Below, piece after piece: positions 9,986 to 50,160 of a stretch of DNA of 64,000 nt. A model generated the notes under the pieces. That model had not been told where the DNA came from and ran no database searches. It saw only the letters and a program-made list of their open reading frames with translations. Within the stretch, counting starts at the first letter, position 1. The number at the start of each line of letters is the position of its first letter. The stretch is from an uncultured Candidatus Saccharibacteria bacterium (GTDB lineage: Bacteria; Patescibacteriota; Minisyncoccia; Phycocordibacterales; DSPV01), in contig CAZTXT010000001.1 of assembly GCA_964617735.1 (NCBI GenBank), forward strand, positions 331,589 to 395,588, read 5' to 3'. The position numbers and the translations under genes were made by a program.

Positions 9986-10050
9986 CGGCAGAGGAGCCCG
10001 TTTGGCCTGCTGTTATTGTGTTTGCCGTCTCATTCCTATAAGCTATCCTC

Positions 10051-10956
10051 GTGTCTACGCTTTATACCGAGCAATCAAAGAATGTACGCAGGACATGGTT
10101 TCTCATGTCCTTGTTTTTGGCGATAATCATTTGTATCGGCTGGTTCATCAGCTATTACTATCAGAGCCCTGCGATCCTCTATGTCGCGGTAATCTTTTCG
10201 GTAGTGATGAATATCGCCAGTTTCTGGTTTTCGGACAAGATAACCCTCTCGCTCTCCCATGCGATCCCCGCTGACCCTAAGCAGTACCCGGAACTTTTTC
10301 ACATCGTCGAGAATCTTTCCATCACTGCGGGACTTCCTGAACCGCACCTCTATGTCATAAACGATCCTGCCCCCAATGCGTTCGCGACGGGGAGGGATAA
10401 AGAACACGCCGCAATCGCGGTGACGACTGGTCTTCTGCAGATGCTCGACCGCAATGAGCTTGAAGGCGTCATCGCGCACGAACTCTCGCATATCGGCAAC
10501 CGCGACACGCTGCTGCAGACGGTCGTGGTCGTCTTGGTCGGGTTCATCGCGATTTTGGCGCATATCTTCACCCGTTCATCGTTCGGGTTCGGCGGGCGCC
10601 GGCGCGAAGGAGGGAAAGGCGCTGGTATCTTAGTGCTCATCGGCCTTATCTTCGTGATTCTTTCGCCCATCATTGCGCAGTTGATCCAACTTGCTATTTC
10701 GCGGAAACGTGAATTTCTCGCCGATGCCGATGGCGCGCTGTTGACGCGGTTCCCCGAAGGTCTCGCGCGTGCGCTCAAAAAGATCTCCGCCTACGATCAG
10801 CCGATGCAGTATGCCAACCACGCGACCGCGCACCTCTATATATCCAACCCGTTCGGTCCGCATGAGGAGCAGGGGTTTATCACCAAACTGTTTATGACCC
10901 ATCCCCCGATACCGGAGCGGATCAAAGCGCTGTTAGGCAATCAGGCTGTTGTGTAG
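10051..10956 (+). CDS. htpX: Zinc metalloprotease HtpX (M48 family)
   Basis: 'HELSHIGNRD' HExxH motif and four TM segments. Confidence 0.85.
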   Translation: MSTLYTEQSKNVRRTWFLMSLFLAIIICIGWFISYYYQSPAILYVAVIFSVVMNIASFWFSDKITLSLSHAIPADPKQYPELFHIVENLSITAGLPEPHLYVINDPAPNAFATGRDKEHAAIAVTTGLLQMLDRNELEGVIAHELSHIGNRDTLLQTVVVVLVGFIAILAHIFTRSSFGFGGRRREGGKGAGILVLIGLIFVILSPIIAQLIQLAISRKREFLADADGALLTRFPEGLARALKKISAYDQPMQYANHATAHLYISNPFGPHEEQGFITKLFMTHPPIPERIKALLGNQAVV

Positions 10957-11016
10957 TTGAAAGTTGTGGCATTACAGTTTAGAGTGTGAGCGATCACCGC
11001 TGGTCGCAGAAAGACT

Positions 11017-11101
11017 GGAGGAGTCGCATAGTGGCCTAGTGCGCTCGCTTGGAAAGCGAGTAGGGGGAAACCCCTCGAGAGTTCGAATCTCTCCTCCTCC
11101 G
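11017..11101 (+). tRNA. tRNA-Ser(GGA), type II with long variable arm, no encoded CCA
   Basis: Acceptor GGAGGAG/CTCCTCC, D-loop 'agtgg', anticodon loop 'ttGGAaa', long variable arm, T-arm GAGAG-TTCGAAT-CTCTC, discriminator G. Confidence 0.85.
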
Positions 11102-11288
11102 ATGCGATTTTGAGAATACCTTTTGGTATTCGTAATCGCATTTCGTGTGAATGCGAGATTCGAAAGCCGCAGCGCACGGAGCGAGTGGAGCGAGCGAAGT
11201 CCGACCGAAGGTCGGGCGCGAGGCGGGGTCGAGAGTACTTGGATTTTTGGAGTCCGCAGGACGAACAAAAAGCTTAGTAACTCGTGAC

Positions 11289-11345
11289 CGAATCTCTCCT
11301 CCTCCGCCTGAAGAAGAAAGTATCGGAGGTATGCGAAGGCATACC
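11289..11345 (+). repeat. Direct repeat B1 (contains an 18-bp copy of the tRNA-Ser 3' end)
   Basis: Matches 14963-15019 with about 5 mismatches over 57 bp. The first 18 nt equal tRNA-Ser positions 11084-11101. Confidence 0.8.
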
Positions 11346-11409
11346 CCGGTGATGCGCTGCGGAGGGCTAAGTTGGCTTCGCTCGTAGGTTAGGAGTAATG
11401 TGAAAGTCT

Positions 11410-13338
11410 ATGGCATGGGACGACGGTTTAAGCGCAGGAACATCGGCGCATCGGATTGCGGGATCAACCCATCGGCGTATTCGGGTTTTAGCGGGTCCTG
11501 GCACGGGTAAATCCTTCGCAATGAAGCGACGTGTGGCTCGCATACTTGAAGTTGAAGGCATCGATCCTACGCAGGTGCTCGCAGTAACCTTTACACGAGT
11601 TGCTGCTGAAGATATTCAGCGTGAACTTCTGTCCTTGGGTGTGACGGGCGCTGACAGGTTGAAAGCAAAGACACTCCACAGTCTGGCGATGTCGATACTC
11701 ATGCGTAATCATGTGCTTACCGCCTTAGGTCGAGTACCAAGACCTCTCAACAAATATGAACTTGAGCCATTATTGGCAGATTTGAGTAATACACACGGAA
11801 ACAAGCGTGAGCGTAAGCGTTTGATTAGGGCTTACTCTGCCGCATGGGCACGCCTACAAACTCAGGAGCCTGGGTATACTCGCTCTCCAGCAGAACAATC
11901 TTTTGTGGACGATTTGGTTGCCTGGTTACGTTTTCACAAAGCGATGCTCGTCGATGAATTGATACCGCATCTGTACCAATACTTACGAAATAATCCGGGG
12001 GCTCCAGAAAGAAACGAATTTCGACACCTGTTGGTTGATGAATATCAAGATCTAAATCGTGCTGAACAAGACGCCCTCCATTTTCTTGGGGAGAGCGGCT
12101 CTCTTTGCGTTATTGGTGACGACGATCAATCTATTTATAGCTTCAAACACGCACACCCTGAAGGTATTCGTGATTGGAGCACGGTGCACGCGGCAGACGA
12201 TCATGCAATAGAAGAGTGTCGAAGGTGTCCGACCACTGTCGTACGAATGGCGAACGCCCTCATAGCGCGGAACACTGATCGAATTGTGGGCCGTCTGATG
12301 ACCGAGAGACCAGAAAATGGCTCGGGTGAAGTTGTAATACGCCAATACCGGAGTGCCACACAGGAAACGGAGGCAGTTGCCGAAAGAATATCAGCGTTGA
12401 TAGCAAGTGGTATTGCGCCGAGCGAGATTATTGTTCTCACTCAACGCGAAGCATTTGCTACACCAATTTTTGATCAACTGAGAACGAAAAATATCCCAAC
12501 AAAATCCTATTACGCCGAATCGAGCCTCGACACATTGGAGGCCCAGGAGCGCTTCGCGACCCTAAAGCTCCTTTTGGATAACGAGGATCGAATCGCTTTA
12601 CGTTGGCTCCTTGGCTATGGGGCGGCGGATTGGAGAACGAATGCGTATCGACGTTTAATGAATTACGTAAGAGCAAATCACACATCTCCTTGGAATGCCT
12701 TAAATGCGCTGGTGGCAGGTACCGTCAGTGTTCCTTATACAGGCGCTCTCGTGAGTCGATTCAACGTAATCAAAGCTGAACTAGACTCGTTGCAGGGCGC
12801 GGCAAATCTGGATGAATTCATTTCGCGCTGGCTTCCAGAAAACCCCAATACCGCACTTCTCAGTGAAGCTGTCACTCAAAGCAAAGAAGGACTTGAAACT
12901 TCTCAAGAACTTTACGACGCCTTATACGAAGCGATCACGCACCCAGAAATACCATCTGAAGTTTCGGAAGTAAGGATAATGAGTCTACATAAAAGTAAGG
13001 GTCTGAGTGCCCCGTTCGTATTCATTGTTGGCTGCGTTGAGGGCCTCTTACCCGCATCGGCCGATCCGGATCTAACCGAGGACGAGCAAGCCGCAAAACT
13101 CGAAGAGGATCGGCGGCTATTTTATGTCGGAATTACCCGAGTCAAAGCCGACCCTACGGCAAATATAGTAGGGTATTTGGCCCTGACCTATGCCCGTACT
13201 ATGCCTGCGGCCGAAGCATATGTTAGTCAAATTACACCCTCTCAAACCGTAGGAGGAATGGCATATTTGCAGCCGACTCGGTTCATTGCAGAAATGGCTC
13301 CTCACGCCCCTGTGGCACAGACCAACACCCCTCTCTAA
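11410..13338 (+). CDS. UvrD/Rep-like superfamily 1 DNA helicase (short form)
   Basis: Walker A 'VLAGPGTGKS', motif II 'LLVDEYQDLN', 'VLAVTFTRVAAEDIQ', C-terminal 'IMSLHKSKGLSAPFVFIVGC' UvrD_C motif. Confidence 0.8.
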   Translation: MAWDDGLSAGTSAHRIAGSTHRRIRVLAGPGTGKSFAMKRRVARILEVEGIDPTQVLAVTFTRVAAEDIQRELLSLGVTGADRLKAKTLHSLAMSILMRNHVLTALGRVPRPLNKYELEPLLADLSNTHGNKRERKRLIRAYSAAWARLQTQEPGYTRSPAEQSFVDDLVAWLRFHKAMLVDELIPHLYQYLRNNPGAPERNEFRHLLVDEYQDLNRAEQDALHFLGESGSLCVIGDDDQSIYSFKHAHPEGIRDWSTVHAADDHAIEECRRCPTTVVRMANALIARNTDRIVGRLMTERPENGSGEVVIRQYRSATQETEAVAERISALIASGIAPSEIIVLTQREAFATPIFDQLRTKNIPTKSYYAESSLDTLEAQERFATLKLLLDNEDRIALRWLLGYGAADWRTNAYRRLMNYVRANHTSPWNALNALVAGTVSVPYTGALVSRFNVIKAELDSLQGAANLDEFISRWLPENPNTALLSEAVTQSKEGLETSQELYDALYEAITHPEIPSEVSEVRIMSLHKSKGLSAPFVFIVGCVEGLLPASADPDLTEDEQAAKLEEDRRLFYVGITRVKADPTANIVGYLALTYARTMPAAEAYVSQITPSQTVGGMAYLQPTRFIAEMAPHAPVAQTNTPL

Positions 13339-14511
13339 TTGTCTATGAGTAAGGATGATTATTTCTACCAACACTTGCAGAAAAATACCCTAAAAGATAA
13401 GGATGTTTTTTTGTGGGCGGCTTTAAACATTGAAAATAGCTTTTCGGGGCGGGTTGATATTCTTACGACCGGGCTACACCGATTCTTTTTAGAATCATCG
13501 AAGTTAATACTGAATGCGATTAAGCTTTACGAAGAGGGGTTTTTTGATGCCGCCTTCTACAGCACACGCTCTGCCCTTGAACTCGCGAGAGTTGTTACAT
13601 ATTTCTCAAATGAGAATGAACTTCAGGATAGTGAGGAATATAAAAATTGGAGAAAAGGTGGAAAATTCCCTTTTGATGCAGCAATAAGAAAACAACTGGA
13701 AGCAAGTGGAAGTGTGTACACAGAGGTACACACAACATTGAAGGATTTCTTTGACGAGCAGAAGGATCGACTTTCATCCGTTCAAAAATATATACACAAG
13801 CAAGGTTATAGGACCTTTTATGAAAGAGGATTTACGAATCCAGAAAGGGATAAACAACGGCAGGAAGTAATTGCCGATGATTTCTACCAGTTTCTTAAGG
13901 GGACGTTGGCTGAAGTAGCTTTTCTACGTTTATGTATTGATCCGTTCCCAATCCTCTTACGTGATAGTCAGGTAATGTATAAAATTCATTTTCAAGGAAT
14001 GACGGAGCCTTTTAGTGACGATTTTGTTACTAAAATTATTGGAGAAAATAAAATCAAACTGTACCGTTCAACCGAATTTTACGTCTCGCATCTAAATTAT
14101 TTTAGCGACAACGAAGAACTTACCGAAGAGATGTATACATTGGTTAATAACCAATACTACGATAGAAAAACCTGGTCGATTATTCAACCGCAAGTACATT
14201 TACTTTCCAAAAACGACACCGCTGCAGTCAACATATTTAATATCTCAAATAAGATTGCGAAAATATATATGTTTGGCGGGTTTGTTTGGTACTTCAGTGA
14301 TGTTAATTCACCTGGAGACCATACAGGATTTTCTTCAGAAGACTTATTGAGGGTAAAAGAGTCAGAGATAAAAACTAACTCAAAATACAAAGAATCCTAC
14401 ATGTCTTATTTCAACTTCGACGACGATGGTTTATGGGTTGAGCACAACGAGCCGCTAAACAAACCTGAGATCATTGAAATCGAGAAAGTACTCAATCCTA
14501 AGGTTCAATAG
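13339..14511 (+). CDS. Hypothetical 390-aa protein, translationally coupled to the helicase, AT-rich
   Basis: The TTG/ATG start abuts the helicase stop (TAA at 13336-13338). Codon composition differs markedly from the flanking genes. No motif recognised. Confidence 0.55.
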   Translation: MSMSKDDYFYQHLQKNTLKDKDVFLWAALNIENSFSGRVDILTTGLHRFFLESSKLILNAIKLYEEGFFDAAFYSTRSALELARVVTYFSNENELQDSEEYKNWRKGGKFPFDAAIRKQLEASGSVYTEVHTTLKDFFDEQKDRLSSVQKYIHKQGYRTFYERGFTNPERDKQRQEVIADDFYQFLKGTLAEVAFLRLCIDPFPILLRDSQVMYKIHFQGMTEPFSDDFVTKIIGENKIKLYRSTEFYVSHLNYFSDNEELTEEMYTLVNNQYYDRKTWSIIQPQVHLLSKNDTAAVNIFNISNKIAKIYMFGGFVWYFSDVNSPGDHTGFSSEDLLRVKESEIKTNSKYKESYMSYFNFDDDGLWVEHNEPLNKPEIIEIEKVLNPKVQ

Positions 14512-32943: not shown

Positions 32944-33020
32944 GCCGGGGTAGCTCAGTTGGTTAGAGCGTCCGCCTGAAGAGCGGTAGGTCGCCAGTTC
33001 GACTCTGGCCCCCGGCACCA
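32944..33020 (+). tRNA. tRNA-Phe(GAA) with encoded CCA
   Basis: Acceptor GCCGGGG/CCCCGGC, D-arm 'agctcagttggttagagc', anticodon loop 'ctGAAga', T-arm GCCAG-TTCGACT-CTGGC, CCA at 33018-33020. Confidence 0.9.
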
Positions 33021-34475
33021 GTTGGGAAAAGTCAAAGAATCTTTATTCGCCTCGCTTCGCTCGGCGAGCACTTCGCGCGGCCTGTTCAGCGTAAAATGCA
33101 GTTTCCGATCTTCCAGACAAAAGTTCGAGCCGATGGTTTTAAGAAATGTTGTCATTCCTGCAAAGTTCTCCGAACTTTGCAGAATAAAGGCTTGATTCAA
33201 GGATTTTACGAACTCACGAGCTAGTTCGAGCCACGACAATCCTTTCTGTTCAAAATCAGTGATTTGTTCCTGAAGTTGTAACTTTTGGGAAATGAATTTT
33301 TCTTTTTTCCTCGCGTACTCTTCATGCGTCAACCCCTCACTCAAATACAAGTCTACAAGCTTGTCCAGCTTTTTCTCGACATCGGCTAACTCGACTTTAA
33401 GATTTTGAACAGAAAGGACAGCTTGTTGCCTTGCTCGCCTTTCGTCTTTTTCAAGTTCTGCTAATACCTTCTCCATGTCGTGGCTCGGCAAGGAAACTTT
33501 TCGTAAGAGATTTCTGATTTGCTCGGCTAACTTTTCCTCCCGCACAAAATGCTTTTCTTGGCAGTTTCCTTTTTTCTTGGTGCATCGGTAGTAGTGGTGT
33601 CCTTTCTGTATTTCGGCGGTGATTGAACATCCGCAACTTTTGCATTTCATAAGTCCAAGAAAAGCAAAGTGGTGTTTCTTTATCTCGCAGACCTTGCCGC
33701 GTTTTTCCAAAACCTCCTGCACCTTGTCGAAAAGTTTCTTTGATATGATCGGCTCGTGAGTTCCTTCGAAAATTTCCCCCTTCCACCTCATGAGTCCGGT
33801 GTAGAAAATATTTTGTAGCATGACAGGAATATGGCTCATGGCGATATTGCCGTTTGTATTGCTTTTCAGACCATTTTCCTTGCACCAATTTGCGAGAGAG
33901 TGGAGAGTGTAGTTTCCGGTGGAATACAGTTCAAATAACCTCCTCACTTTTGGGGCTTTCTCCGCATCAACATCAATTCCTCTCGTCTTTGGGTTGTTCA
34001 GGTATCCCACCGGAGCCCAGCCAGGCCAAACGCCATTTCGTATTTTTTGTCTCAAACCTCGCTTCACATTCTCTCGCAAATTGTCTACAAAATATTTTGA
34101 TTGGCCGAAAGCGATATTGAGCATAAACGAACCTTGCGGTGTCGGTTCGAACCAGAAGGTGGGAAATTTCAAAGATCTAATCAAGCCTTTATCAATCATG
34201 TAAATGATGCGTCCACCATCTACACTGTTTCTCGCAAGACGATCGGGGTGCCATGAGACAATACCCTCGGCTTTTCCTTTCTCAATCAATGACAACATTT
34301 CTTGAAACTTGGGACGGCCAGTCTCTTTGGCTGTTTGTGCCTCGCAAAGCGAGGCGACAATTTCAAGTTTTTCTTTGGCGCAATACAAAGACAGCTCAGC
34401 AAGCTGAGCTTGAATTGAAAGCACTTGTCGGTCATCTTCCTCGGTTGATTTCCGAGCGTAGAGGATGTATTTCAT
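32955..34475 (-). CDS. Large serine recombinase (resolvase catalytic domain, recombinase domain and zinc ribbon)
   Basis: N-terminal 'YARKSTEEDD' catalytic Ser motif, zinc-ribbon 'CKSCGCS...YYRC'. The last roughly 20 codons run antisense through tRNA-Phe. Confidence 0.85.
   Translation of the reverse strand: MKYILYARKSTEEDDRQVLSIQAQLAELSLYCAKEKLEIVASLCEAQTAKETGRPKFQEMLSLIEKGKAEGIVSWHPDRLARNSVDGGRIIYMIDKGLIRSLKFPTFWFEPTPQGSFMLNIAFGQSKYFVDNLRENVKRGLRQKIRNGVWPGWAPVGYLNNPKTRGIDVDAEKAPKVRRLFELYSTGNYTLHSLANWCKENGLKSNTNGNIAMSHIPVMLQNIFYTGLMRWKGEIFEGTHEPIISKKLFDKVQEVLEKRGKVCEIKKHHFAFLGLMKCKSCGCSITAEIQKGHHYYRCTKKKGNCQEKHFVREEKLAEQIRNLLRKVSLPSHDMEKVLAELEKDERRARQQAVLSVQNLKVELADVEKKLDKLVDLYLSEGLTHEEYARKKEKFISQKLQLQEQITDFEQKGLSWLELAREFVKSLNQAFILQSSENFAGMTTFLKTIGSNFCLEDRKLHFTLNRPREVLAERSEANKDSLTFPNWCRGPESNWRPTALQADALTN
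33014..33094. repeat. Inverted repeat a, left copy (includes the tRNA-Phe CCA end)
   Basis: Reverse complement of 34530-34610. Confidence 0.8.
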
Positions 34476-34529
34476 GGTTTTGGTGAGAGTTAGTTGATAA
34501 AAATGTTCTTGTATTCTTCCCTAGGGAAT

Positions 34530-34610
34530 TTCACGCTGAACAGGCCGCACGAAGTGCTCGCCGAGCGAAGCGAGGCGAATAAAGATTCTTTGACTTTTCC
34601 CAACTGGTGC
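34530..34610. repeat. Inverted repeat a, right copy
   Basis: Contains a copy of the recombinase C-terminal coding segment (ORF 34494..34679 shares '...FTLNRP.EVLAERSEANKDSLTFPNWC'). Confidence 0.8.
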
Positions 34611-34695
34611 ACTACTCTTGAATTAGTCCGAACGCATTTTGCCGCCGCAGGCGGCGAGGACTGTCCGCGCGAGAATTGAGCGGGCGGAGCCCGCA
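34607..34695. repeat. Inverted repeat b, left copy
   Basis: Reverse complement matches 35995-36085 over about 55 bp at the outer ends, with a variable centre. Confidence 0.7.
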
Positions 34696-35008
34696 TCTTT
34701 TCAAACAGCCAAAGAGGACTAATTCAAGAAAACCATCGACTCGAACTTTTGTCTGGAAGATCGGAGGGAAGAACACAAGAACATTTTTATCTGATTTAAC
34801 GGCCTAGAAAGGCCGTATTTTGATGGTTGTTCTGTACCTTGACTAAACACAAGCTATATGTTATTCTCTCTGCAGTTCGTTGTAAGCGAGTATTTTTGGA
34901 ATTGCCGTAGCATTTGCGGGCTTGTTGGCTTTGTCTAACACGTTTAACTAACAAAGGACTATCGCATGTGAAAGATGACTTGAGTGAGTCATCTAAGTCA
35001 ACGTAGCA

Positions 35009-44307: not shown

Positions 44308-44382
44308 GGCCCTATCGTCTAACGGTTAGGACGTGGGCTTTTCAAGCCTAAAATCCGGGTTCGATTCCCGGTAGGGTCACCA
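44308..44382 (+). tRNA. tRNA-Glu(UUC) with encoded CCA
   Basis: Acceptor GGCCCTA/TAGGGTC, anticodon loop 'ttTTCaa', T-arm CCGGG-TTCGATT-CCCGG. Confidence 0.85.
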
Positions 44383-46084
44383 GTTGGGTTTTATCCCGTT
44401 TGAAATCTTCAGATAGCTTGAAGAGTGGCTGTAATTTTGGTGTTCCATTAACTATCTCGGAGTAGGTCGGAACTTCCTCAAAAAATAAGCTCAATAGGGC
44501 TCGGCGTGACTGCAGATTGTCTGCGTTTGCAATGATTTCTGCGGGGTGTTCCATTATGCGTCGCGCGTAGCTAATAAACCCTTTGATGCTTCTCTCGGTG
44601 ATTTCAATCTGACCGCGTTTGCTTTCTGCCTCCTTAATACGGGCATCAAGCTCGTGCACTTGCTCTTCGAGCATGCGCCGCACTGTCGCATTGTCGGTCA
44701 ACGTAAGTGCATCAAGTTTGCGGACTTGTTCGGCTTTTAAATCTCCAACGTTGTGGCTAATTCGAGAGGACTGTTCAACGATTTCCTTCTCACGTTCGCG
44801 GTATTTTTTAATCAGCTTTTCGTGTAGCTTGTCGATAAAAGATTTATCAAATCGCAAACTGTCCAAATAATTCTTGATATTTTCTTCGAACTCTTTCTTT
44901 GGGACTCTGAAGCCGACATGCGCTCGCTTACTAACTTTTGCGCCGCCGCAATGATAAGCGGGAAACGTCTCACCGGATTTACCTCGAGACGCGCTCCCGA
45001 GGCATTCGGCTCTGCAGTGAGGGCATGGAATCACTTTCCATGGATATAAGGGATTGTCCTTCATTCGCTTCACTTTGCCCCATGGAGTGTAGTTATGAAC
45101 GACTTGAACGGTATTGTCGGCATTTTCTTTAATAAAAATTGCTCCGCGGTTTGCGCGATTAAACTTGTCGATGGAAACGATGCCTGTGAATTGCTGCATC
45201 CGTACGGGTTGGTGCTTTGTCCATTTTTCGTAATTTATTCCCGCATATTCTGTCTGAAGCACGAAACGCTGAAGCTGCTTCACTGTTAAAGATTTGCCCC
45301 CTCTTTTGCCGACGATTTTATAGTTCTCTACGTCACTTCTATCCCAACGCCTGTATGCGCGTGTCTTAAAGCCCTCTGCGTTTAGTTGCTTAACAATTTC
45401 TTTGTCGTCAACGCCAGCCGCTCGCAAGTCAAACATTTTGACGAAGAAATGTGCTCTTTCGGGGTCTGCCTCTCGGACAACGCGCTCTCGTCGGCCAATG
45501 ATAATCTTTTTATTTTTGAGACCGTCAGGAGCACGTCTCCCAGCGTAACCATCACGTACGTAACCAATTTCTGCCCCGACCATTCGCGTAAGGATATCTC
45601 TTGCTTCGGCCTTGCCTCTATGCGCTTCTAGCATCTCGGCTGCTTCACTCGGGTAGAACCTACTCCACTCGTATTCAACTCCAAGATGCTCCAGCGTATT
45701 CTTTTCAGGTTGGATTATTCCGTAGCTATCGCAAATTTGTACGCCGATTTTCGCAAAATCTTTTTTTAGGCGGTCGTATTCTGGGAAACCCTCGCGCGTG
45801 AGGCGGTCGATGGATTTAAAAATATAATACTGGATTGGTCTTGAAGCGTTCTTGCGGTTCCATCCTGAAATAAATTGCTTAATCATTTCGATATCTTCTC
45901 GCTCTGCGGTCGTCGCAGAGTGCGGTTTCTTAAAGACCTTGGCAACATCCCAATTACGACCCTCGGCATAACGACGTCCGATAATTTCTTGGTCTTCCAA
46001 ACTGCTTCCGCCCACTTGGCTGATATCACTCACGCGACAGTCGATTACGCAGTATTCTTTTTTGTCTTCAGTCGCCATACTCAA
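44348..46084 (-). CDS. Large serine recombinase
   Basis: N-terminal 'CVIDCRVSDISQ' catalytic Ser motif, recombinase domain and a Cys-rich zinc ribbon ('CPHCRAEC...YHCGG'). The C-terminus overlaps tRNA-Glu antisense. Confidence 0.85.
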   Translation of the reverse strand: MSMATEDKKEYCVIDCRVSDISQVGGSSLEDQEIIGRRYAEGRNWDVAKVFKKPHSATTAEREDIEMIKQFISGWNRKNASRPIQYYIFKSIDRLTREGFPEYDRLKKDFAKIGVQICDSYGIIQPEKNTLEHLGVEYEWSRFYPSEAAEMLEAHRGKAEARDILTRMVGAEIGYVRDGYAGRRAPDGLKNKKIIIGRRERVVREADPERAHFFVKMFDLRAAGVDDKEIVKQLNAEGFKTRAYRRWDRSDVENYKIVGKRGGKSLTVKQLQRFVLQTEYAGINYEKWTKHQPVRMQQFTGIVSIDKFNRANRGAIFIKENADNTVQVVHNYTPWGKVKRMKDNPLYPWKVIPCPHCRAECLGSASRGKSGETFPAYHCGGAKVSKRAHVGFRVPKKEFEENIKNYLDSLRFDKSFIDKLHEKLIKKYREREKEIVEQSSRISHNVGDLKAEQVRKLDALTLTDNATVRRMLEEQVHELDARIKEAESKRGQIEITERSIKGFISYARRIMEHPAEIIANADNLQSRRALLSLFFEEVPTYSEIVNGTPKLQPLFKLSEDFKRDKTQLVTLPGIEPGF

Positions 46085-46326
46085 ATGTTATCAGTTTCTA
46101 CCGGAAGAGCGGAACCGTTTTTTAGCTCGCGTAGCCACGAGTCGAAAAGCACGTCGGATAGTTGTTCCAACAATAAATCGACCCGTTCGACCGACGGAAA
46201 GTCGCTGCTGCCTTTGATTTCGTCTTTAGGTGCCACAGAAGCCCGCTCATGGCCTTGCAGGTGTCGGGAGAGACCCACAAAGCCATAAAAGGGCTTCGGT
46301 TCTCCCAACTTCTTGAAATGGGGCAA
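46081..46326 (-). CDS. Small protein translationally coupled to the recombinase (possible RDF/excisionase-like)
   Basis: ATGA overlap with the recombinase start. No motif recognised. Confidence 0.3.
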   Translation of the reverse strand: MPHFKKLGEPKPFYGFVGLSRHLQGHERASVAPKDEIKGSSDFPSVERVDLLLEQLSDVLFDSWLRELKNGSALPVETDNI

Positions 46327-46439
46327 TAAAAAAGCCCCGACCTCAAATCGGCATTTCTCAGGCCAGAGCGGACTCTGCGAGAAATAGCCGATTTCCTTGG
46401 CGTGGCTCGCTTTGTCCTGTGGCAGTTAGTCCAATTCTA

Positions 46440-47195
46440 TCACGCAGCGTGGGCAGCTGTCACTGCGCCCTTTTGTCGTTCATAGGCGCGTATTATGGCC
46501 TCCTTCAATTCATTCGGCTTAACCTCGTATATTTGGAAATCTTTGATATTGTCCTCCTTCAAGTGCAATTGGCCTTCTCCAACGTTCCCGCGATGCTGCC
46601 CCTTGGAATAGTATTTATTGCTCTTTACCTCATCTGAAGATAAGACCCAGTACTTGATAACGTCGCGCCAAACGGCTACCCATACAAAAACGTCACAGTG
46701 TGCCGGCTTGATTTGCTGAAAATTCATCCAAAACGAATGCTTACTTTCAAAAGAAAGGGCTTTAACGTAAAGCGCCTCTGAACTATCGCCATTGACAGCA
46801 CGGGACGCTTTAACCTCAATGCGTATCAAATTACTGCCATCATTGAGCAAAAAGTCGTAGTCACCTTTGTAATTTTGCTCAATTTTTTTCGTGGGCTTAA
46901 CTAGGTCAGGAACAAGCTCCTTTAAATGACCTTGTGCCCACTGTTCGCCAAATCCTCGTGGTGAACTTATCTCGAATATGTAAAGGTACATATTTCGAGC
47001 AATATATTCGTCTCTGATTTCGTAATAATCGTCCAGCGTTATTTTTCCAAATCCCATGAGTGACGAAATGATGTATTCGTACTCGTTAAATGGGTACACT
47101 GACACCAAGTCAGTTAAGCGTGAGCGAATAATTTCCCGCTTATCTGCCGACAGCTCGTCAATCAGCTTGTTCAGTTTTTCTTTCAGGTACTCCAT
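46440..47195 (-). CDS. PD-(D/E)xK nuclease-like protein (candidate restriction endonuclease)
   Basis: 'GDYDFLLNDGSNLIRIEVKAS' fits D...(E/D)xK. Lies immediately downstream of the MTase with a 3-nt gap. Confidence 0.45.
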   Translation of the reverse strand: MEYLKEKLNKLIDELSADKREIIRSRLTDLVSVYPFNEYEYIISSLMGFGKITLDDYYEIRDEYIARNMYLYIFEISSPRGFGEQWAQGHLKELVPDLVKPTKKIEQNYKGDYDFLLNDGSNLIRIEVKASRAVNGDSSEALYVKALSFESKHSFWMNFQQIKPAHCDVFVWVAVWRDVIKYWVLSSDEVKSNKYYSKGQHRGNVGEGQLHLKEDNIKDFQIYEVKPNELKEAIIRAYERQKGAVTAAHAA

Positions 47196-47198
47196 TGT

Positions 47199-49136
47199 TT
47201 ATTCGTATGTTAATAATTTCTCGGATGATTTAATGCCTTGCCTGACAAACTCCTGCTCACCCTTGGTTAGGTTAAACAGTTCCATTATAGAACAGTCGAG
47301 TTTATTGTGCATTTCTGCGCGTTCCTGTGCAGGGGTCTCTTTTCGCAGGAGTACTTCAAGCATTTTTGCAATTATTTTATGCTGACTTTCAGAAATAAGT
47401 GGTAGGGGCAGCTTCTCGACATCGCTTCGCAAAATCTTTATCGAGCGGAATTTCTTTTGATATACAAACTGGTAAAGAGAAGAATTAAATAATGCGAGTA
47501 CGGTCTTTATAGGATAGTTGGGAACTTTTGGAATTAAAATGTTGGCACTATTCAGAGTAAGCGTCTGCTTGTCGTCATAAGCAAAAACCAAATCCTTCGA
47601 AATGAATTTGTATATCAGTTTCTCCGCCGCTCTATATTTGCCTACGGGTGCTACCTGTTGAAATTTATCTGGCTCGAACTTAATGAAATGTTTTGGTGAA
47701 TTAAACAAGTATCGCTTTATCTCCTTACCGGTCAAAATGGCTTCGCTTCCAGCTTCTTTTTTGGGAAGAAGATACTTCTTATTATCACCAGTTACTACTC
47801 CAAGAGCCCACTCCGATTGACCTGCAAGTGAGGTGTGCTTTACGGCGAAAAACTTGTCGATGATGGCAAGTTCGTTGTTTCCGTTGAACACATCGAACGT
47901 AAAGTCAGGGTTCGACTTTAGCCGTGCTTGCAGCACTTTGTGAACAGTGCCGTTTTCCACCTCAAATTCGGAATTTTCGCTTGGCATTTTCTTGCGGACG
48001 TCCAAACGTATTACCGGTGTGAATACTTTCTTAAAAACGCGATTTAGGTGCTTTACTCTCGCGATTTCTGTCTGATGCAGTATTAAATTTCGAACATCCC
48101 TATGGATTTTTACGTGGAGGATTGCTTCGGGCAATATATAAGCCAAAACCCCACCATCCTTAAGCATGTCACGCCCCTTTGATATAAAAAGTGAAAATGC
48201 TTCGTCGGAGCTTATGTGCGGATAATTCTCCTGAATTTGTACAATCTCCGAGGGAGAGAAATGGACTCCCCATGGTGGGTTTGTCATCACAACATCAAAT
48301 TCTGGGAGCGCTTCCGAGTCAGAAAATAGAGTGTCTTTTAAAAATATATTTGGTTCGAAATCTGTGTCAGCAAATTTAATCAGAAGGTTAATACGTGCAA
48401 TTTTGACGGCAGTTTCGTCGATATCAAACCCCCACAATTGTGATGGATGTTTTACTGCGGTCGCAGCAGAAAGTAAAAATTGTCCGGTGCCACAGCATGG
48501 GTCTAAAACGATGCCAGAGGGTTGGACATATTCCTGCACGATATCTTCTACGACCCAGCGTGGAGTATAGTAAGACCCGCCTTGTGCCTTTTTTCCTTCC
48601 AACGAAAGAGATTGGTAAATGAGTCCGAGAAAATCACCGGTCTTTGGCAACTTATATTTGAGCAAGTCAGAATATTCAGTTTCAGAAAAAGTATTTTTTG
48701 TCCGCTCTTTCCACCAATTCAGTTCTTGCTTTAAACTTTTGCTTTTGAGCCCAGCTGCTTTAACTGCATTGAATACAAGTGCATAAAGCAGCGCATGTTT
48801 ATCTAATTCTCGGGAATGAAATTCATCCAGTACGTACTGAACAAAATGCAACATTTCCTCGCTGTCCGCGTATTCTTCGGGGATAAACATGCCTTGAGCA
48901 TGCTTTTTGTTCGCTCGCTTATTAAGTCGACCGAGTTCGCCATTGGCTATCTTTTCCTTCAGGTCTCGAACTTGTTGGTAGTCGAATAAAACCTTTCTTC
49001 CTTGGGTTGTCGGGACAAGATAATCGTGCCTTATCCAATTACGAACAGTGGCCGAAGAAACGCCTAAAAGCGACACTGCTTCTTTAAGGTCTATTTCTCT
49101 TTGTGGCGCACTTTGCATGTAACCATTGTAATACAA
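47199..49136 (-). CDS. N6-adenine DNA methyltransferase (gamma class) with N-terminal HTH_17/MerR-like domain
   Basis: Motif I 'VLDPCCGTGQFLLSA' precedes motif IV 'VVMTNPPWG'. N-terminal 'LKEAVSLLGVSSATVRNWIRHDYLVP'. Confidence 0.8.
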   Translation of the reverse strand: MYYNGYMQSAPQREIDLKEAVSLLGVSSATVRNWIRHDYLVPTTQGRKVLFDYQQVRDLKEKIANGELGRLNKRANKKHAQGMFIPEEYADSEEMLHFVQYVLDEFHSRELDKHALLYALVFNAVKAAGLKSKSLKQELNWWKERTKNTFSETEYSDLLKYKLPKTGDFLGLIYQSLSLEGKKAQGGSYYTPRWVVEDIVQEYVQPSGIVLDPCCGTGQFLLSAATAVKHPSQLWGFDIDETAVKIARINLLIKFADTDFEPNIFLKDTLFSDSEALPEFDVVMTNPPWGVHFSPSEIVQIQENYPHISSDEAFSLFISKGRDMLKDGGVLAYILPEAILHVKIHRDVRNLILHQTEIARVKHLNRVFKKVFTPVIRLDVRKKMPSENSEFEVENGTVHKVLQARLKSNPDFTFDVFNGNNELAIIDKFFAVKHTSLAGQSEWALGVVTGDNKKYLLPKKEAGSEAILTGKEIKRYLFNSPKHFIKFEPDKFQQVAPVGKYRAAEKLIYKFISKDLVFAYDDKQTLTLNSANILIPKVPNYPIKTVLALFNSSLYQFVYQKKFRSIKILRSDVEKLPLPLISESQHKIIAKMLEVLLRKETPAQERAEMHNKLDCSIMELFNLTKGEQEFVRQGIKSSEKLLTYE

Positions 49137-49145
49137 CGCCTAAAT

Positions 49146-49598
49146 TCATGCCTTTTGTTTACGACCCCAGACAAGCTTTTGACGCAGTTTTTCTTCAAAT
49201 TCATCCACAAGGGCTTGAACTTCAGGACTAGGTGAAGGGTCGCTATGGGCGTCTCGACTTGTAATCTCTACTTTTTGCCGTACCCCAAATTCATATGGTC
49301 TTTTACGCTCAAGATACCGAAATGCGTATACCGGATTATCAAGATTTTGTACCATTGTTTGCCGAGCTTTTAATATTGGCTGCGTTCGTATGGCTTCAAA
49401 CCTCTCCAAAAGGTCTCTATTTTGACTTATCCAGTGATAGTAGGTTGAAGGGGAGATGTTGGCATAAAAACAAGCTTCTTCGACTGTTGCGTCGAGCGCA
49501 AATGCTTGTTCGAGCTTTTGTATGGTTTCGGGTTTGAACTTACTCACTGCTCGCGAGATTCGCTGTCTTCGAAGCTGTTCGTTAGATGGCCTAGTCAT
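49146..49598 (-). CDS. Terminase small subunit-like HTH protein
   Basis: 'KFKPETIQKLEQAFALDATVEEACFYANISPSTYYHWISQNRDLLERFEAIR' resembles the Terminase_2 (TerS) N-terminal HTH pattern. Confidence 0.45.
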   Translation of the reverse strand: MTRPSNEQLRRQRISRAVSKFKPETIQKLEQAFALDATVEEACFYANISPSTYYHWISQNRDLLERFEAIRTQPILKARQTMVQNLDNPVYAFRYLERKRPYEFGVRQKVEITSRDAHSDPSPSPEVQALVDEFEEKLRQKLVWGRKQKA

Positions 49599-50160
49599 AG
49601 TGTTCTATTACACAATGGTGAGAATCTTTAATCGAAAAAAGTCGACTTTACGCGGGCGATAAGTTCAACGCGTTGGTGGTTTCAAACACGCGGTTCCAAG
49701 AAATTATCATGCTTTCCATAGTGTTCCATTGGAAGTACACTGGGCTCAAAAAGCGTCAGAAATCGCAAAGCAATTTGCGATTTTAGCTTTTGACGGGCGC
49801 AGTGATGTTTCGTTAGCAAACGAAACCACGAGCCGGGGTCGCGAAATTTCCGAGCGACGGCGAGGAAATATTCGTGACCATATATAATCTGTAAAAAATT
49901 ACCCAACCGAGGTTGGGTAATTGACTGGCTGTGTCAGTGCCGCAGCCGAGCTTTTTGTTTACGCTCAATCAGTTTGGTCGCCGTTGCAACGAGCCAGGCG
50001 TAGCAGTAAACGAACAGTAGCATACCGGCGTCTATCACGGAATGTCGGCGCATCTTCATAGAACCTCCGTTGATATTCTAGTCTCTGGAATTCTTTTTTC
50101 AAGAAGCCCCCTGATGATGCAGAGACTGTATGCATCGGTCCTAGATACTCTTCTATCCGA

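Follow-up and report, generated by a model that had tools for sequence, protein, structure and literature searches.

Serine integrases are major tools of genome engineering, and the direction in which they recombine their sites is normally set by separate cofactor proteins. According to a genome-wide survey of 2020, no integrase of this type had yet been reported to use a tRNA gene, and such use called for proof (PMC7192596); in a review of 2021 the SSV-type integrases were regarded as exclusive to archaea (PMC8371274). Here we describe an element on contig CAZTXT010000001.1 of an uncultured Candidatus Saccharibacteria bacterium, from which a stretch of 64,000 nt was analysed (the window, to which all coordinates refer). 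The element occupies positions 44380-49748 (5369 bp). It is, with high probability, an intact 5.4-kb integrative defence island that was inserted by a Patescibacteria-type large serine recombinase (LSR) at the 3' end of a gene for tRNA-Glu(UUC), and its recombinase appears to represent a variant of the serine integrases that is widespread in Patescibacteria.

The recombinase gene and its junctions with tRNA-Glu(UUC)

The gene at the left end of the element (44348..46084, minus strand) encodes in its integrated form a protein of 578 aa, or of 576 aa if translation starts at an alternative ATG at 46078. It was identified by Pfam and PHROG matches and by alignment. The match with the Pfam model Recombinase (PF07508) was weak, scoring above the curated cut-off (2.1e-5), and that with Resolvase (1.9e-4, residues 16-118) reached 22.0 bits, just under the cut-off of 23.3 bits; phrog_95 ('integrase') was matched at 5.5e-23. 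In an alignment of 31 homologues C16, R17 and S19 were nearly invariant and R94 and R97 invariant (RxS and DRxxR motifs), as were C354, C357, H378 and C379 of a zinc ribbon. PF13408 is on record for some of the homologues. The protein has a resolvase-type catalytic domain with the serine nucleophile and conserved arginines, and C-terminal to it a Recombinase domain and the zinc ribbon, and by these sequence criteria it classes as a large serine recombinase. No database record holds its exact sequence.

The 3' end of this gene runs into the tRNA-Glu(UUC) gene that was found by ARAGORN on the plus strand (44308..44382) and that was recognized as the integration target from its sequence and from the junctions. 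The open reading frame (ORF) enters the tRNA by 35 nt. Codons 1-569 (44378-46084) are encoded by the element, the first two bases of codon 570 lie in the crossover core, and the last nine codons with the stop are antisense tRNA-Glu; the C-terminal LVTLPGIEPGF (11 codons plus the stop) is the antisense of the stretch from the anticodon stem to the CCA end, which takes in the T-arm and the acceptor stem. Positions 1-73 of the tRNA are host DNA, and the CCA (44380-44382) and everything beyond it are element DNA. The core of attL is found at 44377..44379 (TCA on the plus strand, tRNA positions 71-73, which is TGA in the sense of the recombinase gene). That of attR, again TCA on the plus strand, is found at 49746..49748 and forms the right end of the element; host DNA restarts at 49749 (AAAAGCGTCAG...).

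Alignment of the junctions of five loci showed that TGA is the only sequence common to attL and attR, and over 19 loci at tRNA-Glu the information content of attR rose, exactly at the TGA, from about 0 bits in the host flank to 2 bits. Read in the recombinase sense, attL is ...CAA CTG G-TG-A CC CTA CCG GGA ATC GAA..., with the tRNA starting at the core, and attR is (variable host flank)-TGA-GC CCA KTG TAC TT. ... TGG AAC. At loci in tRNA genes other than those for Glu the three bases of the core vary with the target. Because attL and attR have nothing else in common, strand exchange is placed in the TGA/TCA core, at 44377-44379 and 49746-49748, and the exchanged dinucleotide would be either TG or GA. 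Repeat searches revealed no direct repeat at the element ends and no second copy of the tRNA 3' end at attR, which is in keeping with a serine recombinase. Likewise, the att sites are short, as in other LSR systems, with 3 nt common to attL and attR and no long repeats.

The remainder of the recombinase gene was found at the opposite end of the element. On the minus strand at 49648..49746 lie 32 codons (SPVYFQWNTMESMIISWNRVFETTNALNLSPA) and a stop, which have no start codon of their own. They were located with a profile of 30 positions that was built from 10 homologues with C-termini not derived from a tRNA and run on the six-frame translation of the window. It gave a single match (minus strand, 49755-49651, E 2.3e-10), and one match in each of the related loci L005, L007, L009 and L011, in all cases 3-6 kb upstream on the strand of the recombinase gene. 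A minority of the homologues finish in the conserved tail of about 30 residues from which this profile derives (SPLSLEWNT.E....W..VF). Because it is carried by uninterrupted members among conjugation-type genes, i.e. those for TrwB/TraG-like coupling proteins and ArdC (L001, L060, L064 and L104), this WNT tail represents the C-terminus native to the family. The recombinase gene of the window has, then, been cut by integration, its last 32 codons being left at the far end. The 569 residues from the element and the tail of 32 residues add up to 601 aa, and the rejoined protein aligns with residues 2-584 of the 587 of the uninterrupted homologue P0052 and with residues 7-589 of the 594 of P0071. 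A natural attP is present in the gene of P0052, which lies with genes on either side of it and no tRNA on a contig of 5.3 kb (L103). This site reads CCCAACTGG-TGA-GCCCATTGTCC..TGGAAC and consists of the left arm of attL of the window, the core, and the right-arm consensus of attR.

About 200 homologues of the recombinase were found, almost all of them from Patescibacteria, and 94 of the 120 that were listed end in peptides of antisense tRNA, for example LVTL(P/R)GIEP(G/R)F. Among the 79 genome loci in which the 3' end of the recombinase gene falls inside the locus, the gene enters an antisense tRNA in about 63, nearly all from Patescibacteria; the stop codon lies inside the tRNA in 51, and 12 more genes read through it. 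At L045 a tRNA-Ile follows immediately beyond the stop. The majority of the targets are tRNA-Glu (UUC, CUC), the others being tRNAs for Leu, Lys, Arg, Trp, Ala, Gly, Ser and Tyr. Detached tails were traced, 4-11 kb upstream, in 30 related loci that are independent of one another; the elements delimited in this way measure 4.1-10.9 kb (median 7.2 kb). The identities of the genes, both junctions, the split gene, its generality in the family and the matching natural attP are in this way documented at the level of the DNA. The gene does not overlap the tRNA by chance: the overlap is the attL junction of a recombinase that has attP inside its own coding sequence.

The following course of events is proposed. 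The attP would lie about 32 codons ahead of the stop, within the coding sequence of the recombinase, and the exchange would occur in the 3-nt core that matches tRNA positions 71-73 (TCA). Integration would leave the mature tRNA body (1-73) intact, add an element-encoded CCA trailer and fuse the recombinase ORF to the antisense tRNA. The enzyme would then end in ...QLV-TLPGIEPGF, and its native last 32 codons (SPVYFQWNT...VF...) would be stranded at the opposite end of the element. Excision would yield a circle in which the 601-aa gene is rebuilt and all five genes are co-directional. The attP predicted for this element is CCCAACTGG-TGA-GCCCAGTGTAC and the predicted circle junction ...AAAACCCAACTGG-TGA-GCCCAGTGTACTTCCAATGGAAC...; the empty site was reconstructed as ...GGTAGGGTCA directly followed by AAAAGCG, with no encoded CCA, and would read ...TTCCCGGTAGGG-TCA-AAAAGCGTCAGAAATCGC... 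when centred on the core.

The initial annotation, which had been made from the letters of the sequence and a list of ORFs, had reported a serine-recombinase element at tRNA-Glu, with five minus-strand genes, an antisense overlap with the tRNA and a lowered G+C content. These features are all present, and the family matches and the junctions agree with them. The G+C content is 0.41-0.43 across 46500-49500 (the middle three genes) and 0.46-0.49 over the recombinase, and the flanks have 0.50-0.56. The same annotation had put the right end at 49650 and had left the boundary there undefined for want of a repeat. The repeat is indeed missing; the boundary is set by the split recombinase gene instead and lies at 49748, the detached 3' end occupying 49648-49746. 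Between attR and trxB (49749-50160) there are about 410 nt of non-coding host DNA with no evident gene, in which a minus-strand hairpin followed by a T-run was noted by eye (49896-49920) and a terminator-like site was called by a scanner on the plus strand (49926-49948).

Two other views of the junctions were dropped. The first was that the 3' half of the tRNA comes from the element and that the crossover lies in the T-loop; the bases common to attL and attR are TGA, at positions 71-73 only. The second was that the supply of CCA by the element is a general trait; CCA is encoded in 28 of 64 occupied tRNAs and in 23 of 63 others. Of the seven tRNA genes of the window three encode CCA, i.e. the two at recombinase junctions and tRNA-Ser(CGA). 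Both recombinase/tRNA junctions of this genome (33015-33026 and 44377-44388) have the 11-mer CACCAGTTGGG in common, which is read in different frames by the two unrelated recombinases (PNWC versus QLV).

Cargo genes and the control of recombination

The two largest cargo genes encode a predicted restriction-modification (R-M) pair. The restriction endonuclease (REase; 46440..47195, minus strand, 251 aa) was assigned to Type II by PADLOC, alignment and fold. It matched the PADLOC model REase_II PDLC03414 over its full length (1.8e-73), and D114 and E127-V-K129 are invariant across the alignment of its homologues. Its AF2 model is of moderate quality (predicted local distance difference test, pLDDT, 75) and gave as best Foldseek matches NhoI, I-Ssp6803I, Hjc, the SPARDA nuclease and HincII (prob 1.0, E 2.5e-4), so this model predicts a PD-(D/E)xK nuclease fold. 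Those listed database members that bear a source name are all called 'hypothetical', and most listed members carry none. The partner (47199..49136, minus strand, 645 aa) is by Pfam and PADLOC a gamma-class N6-adenine DNA methyltransferase (MTase), with matches to N6_Mtase (6.9e-25), TaqI_C (1.7e-22), Eco57I (1.5e-16), HTH_17 (3.9e-6) and the PADLOC model MTase_II PDLC03348 (9.3e-130). Its helix-turn-helix (HTH_17) is N-terminal, its target-recognition domain is TaqI-like, and motif I (DPCCGTGQF) comes before motif IV (NPPW). The two genes are 3 nt apart (47196-47198). They are adjacent and separate and match Type II profiles, and the REase has the nuclease motif in addition to the modelled fold. 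As in described Type II systems with a gamma-class N6-adenine MTase, MTase and PD-(D/E)xK REase are co-directional, with NPPW and FxGxG in gamma order; the pair differs from these in that no Pfam family covers the REase. NCBIfam gave no match for four of the five element proteins and sub-threshold matches only for the MTase, and PDB sequence searches with the REase and with the 150-aa protein discussed below gave nothing useful.

The R-M pair is presumably active, and most likely it gives anti-phage defence as well as post-segregational stabilisation. In other HTH-bearing methyltransferases the HTH autoregulates the operon, and by analogy the N-terminal HTH of the MTase probably does the same here. 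No related locus of the recombinase family carries this pair, a cassette with an REase that is 87% identical also rides an unrelated LSR element at tRNA-Asn (L102), and REase homologues of 70-90% identity are spread over several phyla. For these reasons the R-M module appears to be recently acquired, exchangeable cargo. At L102 (L102:5832-12536) the order is a separate 58-aa HTH_17 protein, MTase, a gap of 3 nt and REase, and the MTase is only 55% identical to that of the window. The LSR of L102 belongs to the family of another recombinase of the window, that of an element at tRNA-Phe described below, and its stop lies inside the antisense tRNA-Asn. Among the LSRs of Patescibacteria, at least two families therefore target tRNA 3' ends.

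The cargo of the recombinase family was surveyed in 26 delimited elements with 140 ORFs. It is varied, rich in defence genes and different at each related locus. Type III R-M systems and C5 and N6 methyltransferases were found, together with SMODS, reverse-transcriptase, KAP NTPase, AbiEii-like ATPase, UvrD, PIN-TPR and SNase domains, and some proteins matched the models for Hhe and Mokosh. The suggestion of the initial annotation that the locus is a mobile defence island with a Type II R-M pair, the genes of which are 3 nt apart, fits this survey and the PADLOC matches. The nuclease fold that it had put forward for the 251-aa protein was recovered in the structural comparison. Nor is the MTase an orphan that relatives conserve at this position, the related loci having no such pair.

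A small ORF of 81 aa (46081..46326, minus strand) abuts the start of the recombinase gene and belongs to no known family. A related ORF of 48-59 aa precedes the recombinase in five of the six other loci that were read, and at L009 its motif is present in the translation with no gene called there. The motif FKK(A)LG...L(A/S)xxLFxxW is common to the ORF of the window and to L001, L009, L011 and L103, and the small ORFs of L005 and L007 match only its C-terminal part, L(A/S)xxL(F/L)xxW. From its position and conservation the 81-aa protein is a candidate cofactor or directionality factor of the recombinase. Consensus scans alone placed a minus-strand terminator-like hairpin (46337..46351) in the stretch that separates the R-M and recombinase units, and a promoter-like site at 46463-46434. 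Because promoter-like sites were not enriched over shuffled sequence, no promoter is claimed.

The fifth gene (49146..49598, minus strand) encodes a protein of 150 aa with an HTH followed by a long helix. It matched phrog_4102 ('terminase small subunit', 2.4e-14), in agreement with the terminase-like N-terminus noticed in the initial annotation, and HTH_Tnp_1 (1e-4). Its AF2 model (pLDDT 79) resembles best the terminase small subunit (TerS) gp1 of Sf6 (prob 0.99, E 0.036, which is weak) and also 2ao9. An N-terminal HTH and an oligomerisation helix, with similarity to TerS in sequence and, at weak E-values, in fold, identify it as a TerS homologue. About 180 homologues were found, many of them on contigs of 30-45 kb. 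The homologue of L016 overlaps the start of a gene resembling that for the terminase large subunit (TerL; phrog_5909/9/38), and that of L018 is followed after 1.7 kb by a clear TerL gene (phrog_675, 3.9e-88). No TerL gene was found in the element or in this region of the window, so that TerS stands beside TerL only in the phage homologues. TerS homologues occur in five other elements of the recombinase family (L020, L029, L031, L032 and L083), each encoded on the same strand as the recombinase; those of L020, L029, L032 and L083 lie directly upstream of the small ORF. The TerS homologue is hence not random cargo.

Two observations were made on the neighbourhood of such genes. The closest full-length TerS homologue outside the genome of the window, P0124 (54% identical; L014:6001-11884), has no TerL beside it. 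It has as neighbours a tRNA-Ser(GCU), a Type III R-M pair, a PemK toxin and an NYN nuclease, and this region is seemingly another small island that links TerS with R-M. In addition, a second recurrent backbone gene encoding about 225 aa is found just upstream of the small ORF and the recombinase where TerS is missing from that place (L009:9020-9688, L021:8947-9609, L031:8941-9627, L034:8967-9653 and L035:5038-5730). Its product is unrelated to TerS and showed a weak match to HTH_11 in L009.

The use of TerS in a phage satellite is possible. According to this explanation the element would be a minimal satellite, in which TerS steers the TerL of a helper phage to element DNA, concatemers are packaged in helper capsids and the R-M pair serves as interference or defence cargo. 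Taken as a whole it is a tentative explanation that we hold to be rather unlikely. The TerS homologues next to TerL-like genes in the phage contigs L016 and L018 speak for it, as do the fold match with Sf6 TerS, tblastn matches in two Streptococcus satellite phages and the recurrence of TerS in five other elements of the family. The TerS of the window is 54-62% identical to phage TerS and 46% to the copy in the sister element L020, a pattern that a protein tracking helper phages should show. Satellites with a serine recombinase have been published, as have satellites of <5 to 17 kb that are packaged as concatemers (PMC9618062). However, the matches in the family libraries revealed no replication, primase, regulator or capsid-redirecting gene among the five genes. 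A satellite's own replication module and helper-responsive regulator were looked for as matches to a primase, a replication protein or a repressor, and none was obtained. Moreover, TerS is present in only about six of some 85 elements of the family, the ~225-aa protein with its weak HTH match holds its position elsewhere, and only two relatives of the recombinase were detected among 2.9 million viral contigs (IMG/VR, a collection biased against elements that have no viral hallmark genes). With the weak E-value of the fold match these points weigh on the other side. Of the resemblance to phage satellites raised in the initial annotation, the homology of TerS holds, and the satellite reading itself is no more than possible.

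The TerS-like protein could also, by itself or jointly with the 81-aa protein, act as a DNA-binding regulator or a directionality factor of the LSR and have no part in packaging. We regard this as unlikely. The protein has an HTH, in the four elements mentioned it lies on the same strand immediately upstream of the small ORF and the recombinase, and in other elements that position is taken by another protein, which matches an HTH model weakly. According to the abstract of a preprint of 2024, large serine integrases can recruit scavenged phage proteins as directionality cofactors (10.1101/2024.08.21.608926). In the window, however, the R-M pair lies between TerS and the recombinase unit, and the closest relatives of the protein, whose role here is deduced from homology, are genuine phage TerS proteins beside TerL.

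Directionality may also be considered from the side of the recombinase itself. The integrated enzyme keeps all recognised domains, and the exchange of its C-terminus could have no consequence or could change its activity with the state of the element. That the exchange acts as a built-in switch of directionality or commitment is quite doubtful. If it did, the circle alone would encode the 601-aa enzyme with the conserved WNT..E....W..VF tail, and the integrated element alone would encode the tRNA-tailed form of 578 aa. The two forms would differ in their preference for attP x attB versus attL x attR, in stability or in the binding of a partner. The physical state of the element would then set the direction of recombination, without a classical directionality factor or jointly with the small ORF. 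The roles given here to TerS, the 81-aa ORF and the swapped C-terminus are suggestions from homology, position and conservation.

Mobility of the element and other possible islands of the window

We infer that the island inserted at tRNA-Glu(UUC) is still mobile, and it is probably active or was so recently. All ORFs and the catalytic residues are intact, and the untranslated tail of 32 codons is still open and conserved, here as well as in the 30 independent related loci. The similarities of hosts and recombinases disagree with each other. The most similar host as judged by trxB/ftsA/tsaD (64/55/53%), which is second by ftsZ (68%), is that of L042, and its recombinase is only 43% identical to that of the window. 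Less similar hosts have recombinases that are 60-61% identical.

Several findings weigh against a mobile island. When metagenome contigs were scanned for exact matches to the reconstructed empty site (CCGGTAGGGTCAAAAAGCGTCAG), none was obtained, and a degenerate pattern for the attP junction, which was over-strict and would miss the real attP of L103, gave none either. The contig of L103 is linear, with ends that do not overlap, so that its circular form is at most presumed. Some uninterrupted homologues are located on long contigs binned outside Patescibacteria, beside conjugative coupling-protein genes, and therefore an uninterrupted gene does not always signify an unintegrated element. The divergence of the recombinase from its nearest relatives (58-61% identity) is near that of the housekeeping genes (55-70%), which leaves room for long residence at this tRNA with turnover of the cargo. 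Furthermore, the activities of the recombinase, the R-M pair and TerS are all predictions from their sequences.

Part of these data would also be accounted for by a fixed, immobile island, in which the recombinase has been at tRNA-Glu since before the lineages split and the R-M pair is now an ordinary defence system of the host. Relatives with the same neighbourhood (tsaD ... tRNA-Ser, tRNA-Glu, element, trxB, ftsZ, ftsA) carry a recombinase of the family at tRNA-Glu, its identity resembles that of host proteins, and the metagenome scans gave neither empty site nor circle. This is nevertheless improbable. The ORFs are intact and the catalytic residues conserved, and a tail that has stayed open and conserved at so many loci is not expected after long neutral decay. 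The conflict between host and recombinase similarity at L042 and the difference of the cargo in every relative argue in the same direction, and the 87-90% identity of the REase to copies in unrelated contexts points to a recent acquisition. The cryptic-prophage remnant that had been considered in the initial annotation is ruled out by a compact and complete five-gene element in which both junctions and all ORFs are intact and whose circle would be a closed unit of five genes.

Uninterrupted family members with the native WNT tail were seen at L060, L064, L066 and L079 (at about 10000-11760 in each), on contigs of 31-265 kb with a G+C content of 0.41-0.61. Their bins are Verrucomicrobiia, Alphaproteobacteria, Gemmatimonadaceae and Saprospiraceae, and TrwB/TraG-like coupling-protein genes lie downstream in L060 and L064. 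Either conjugative elements from other phyla or errors of binning could account for them.

Two other regions of the window deserve description. The first recombinase element carries an LSR gene (32955..34475) of the other family mentioned above (BLASTP E 0.3 against the recombinase at tRNA-Glu), which also ends in an antisense tRNA, tRNA-Phe (32944..33020). The gene is flanked by an inverted repeat of 83 nt with 98% identity (33015-33097 / 34528-34610), and a second inverted repeat of 37 nt has 97% identity (33104-33140 / 34729-34765). In the far arm the last 27 residues before the junction (FTLNRP.EVLAERSEANKDSLTFPNWC) are re-encoded on the opposite strand, after which the sequences diverge. 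This element (32944-34800) could have undergone inversion between att sites or could be an invertible arrangement. In the second region (11016-14511) a tRNA-Ser(GGA) (11016..11102) is followed by a UvrD-type helicase (11410..13338) and a 390-aa protein of no family (13339..14511), and the G+C content falls to 0.37; it may be another island at a tRNA.

Comparison with known systems

No description of this recombinase family was found in the searchable literature, most subscription journals lying outside it. The family would represent a new design for specificity and directionality, in which the att site lies in the recombinase's own gene and the invariant 3' ends of tRNAs are targeted. It bears on two stated gaps, namely the targeting of tRNA genes by serine integrases (PMC7192596) and the location of att within the integrase gene, which was thought to be confined to archaea and to tyrosine recombinases (PMC8371274). 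Were the C-terminal exchange indeed a switch, the family would offer natural serine integrases for universally conserved tRNA 3' ends. For Patescibacteria, which have tiny genomes and little-known mobile elements, elements of 4-11 kb seem to be a main vehicle for the exchange of defence systems; the SMODS domains among their cargo are of the CBASS type. In annotation, the detached tail of 32 codons can serve as a precise boundary marker where repeats are missing.

With small satellites (PICI, PLE and the marine virion-encapsidated integrative mobile elements) the element has in common an integrase together with a TerS homologue, and defence cargo. It differs from them in that a replication and regulatory module is missing and TerS is not universal in the family, and in that it is known from its genes alone. 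The SSV-type 'suicidal' tyrosine integrases of archaeal viruses and plasmids resemble it in having att in the integrase gene, a tRNA as target and an ORF that is partitioned on integration (PMC8371274). In those, however, a tyrosine recombinase is divided into two large gene parts and presumably inactivated, whereas here a bacterial serine recombinase has the last 5% of its sequence swapped. The resemblance is an analogy and not membership, as the ORF is split at a tRNA in both and the enzyme here is not a tyrosine recombinase.

The closest relationship is that with the serine integrases (phiC31, Bxb1, A118, SCCmec Ccr and the PLE integrase). These share with the present family the resolvase catalytic domain, the recombinase domain and the zinc ribbon, a tiny identical att core, the lack of flanking direct repeats and an integrase gene at one end of the element. 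The present family differs from them in its very weak similarity to the Pfam models and in being almost confined to Patescibacteria. It differs further in its target, the 3' end of a tRNA, and in its attP, which is located inside the coding sequence, the last ~32 residues of the enzyme being exchanged on integration.

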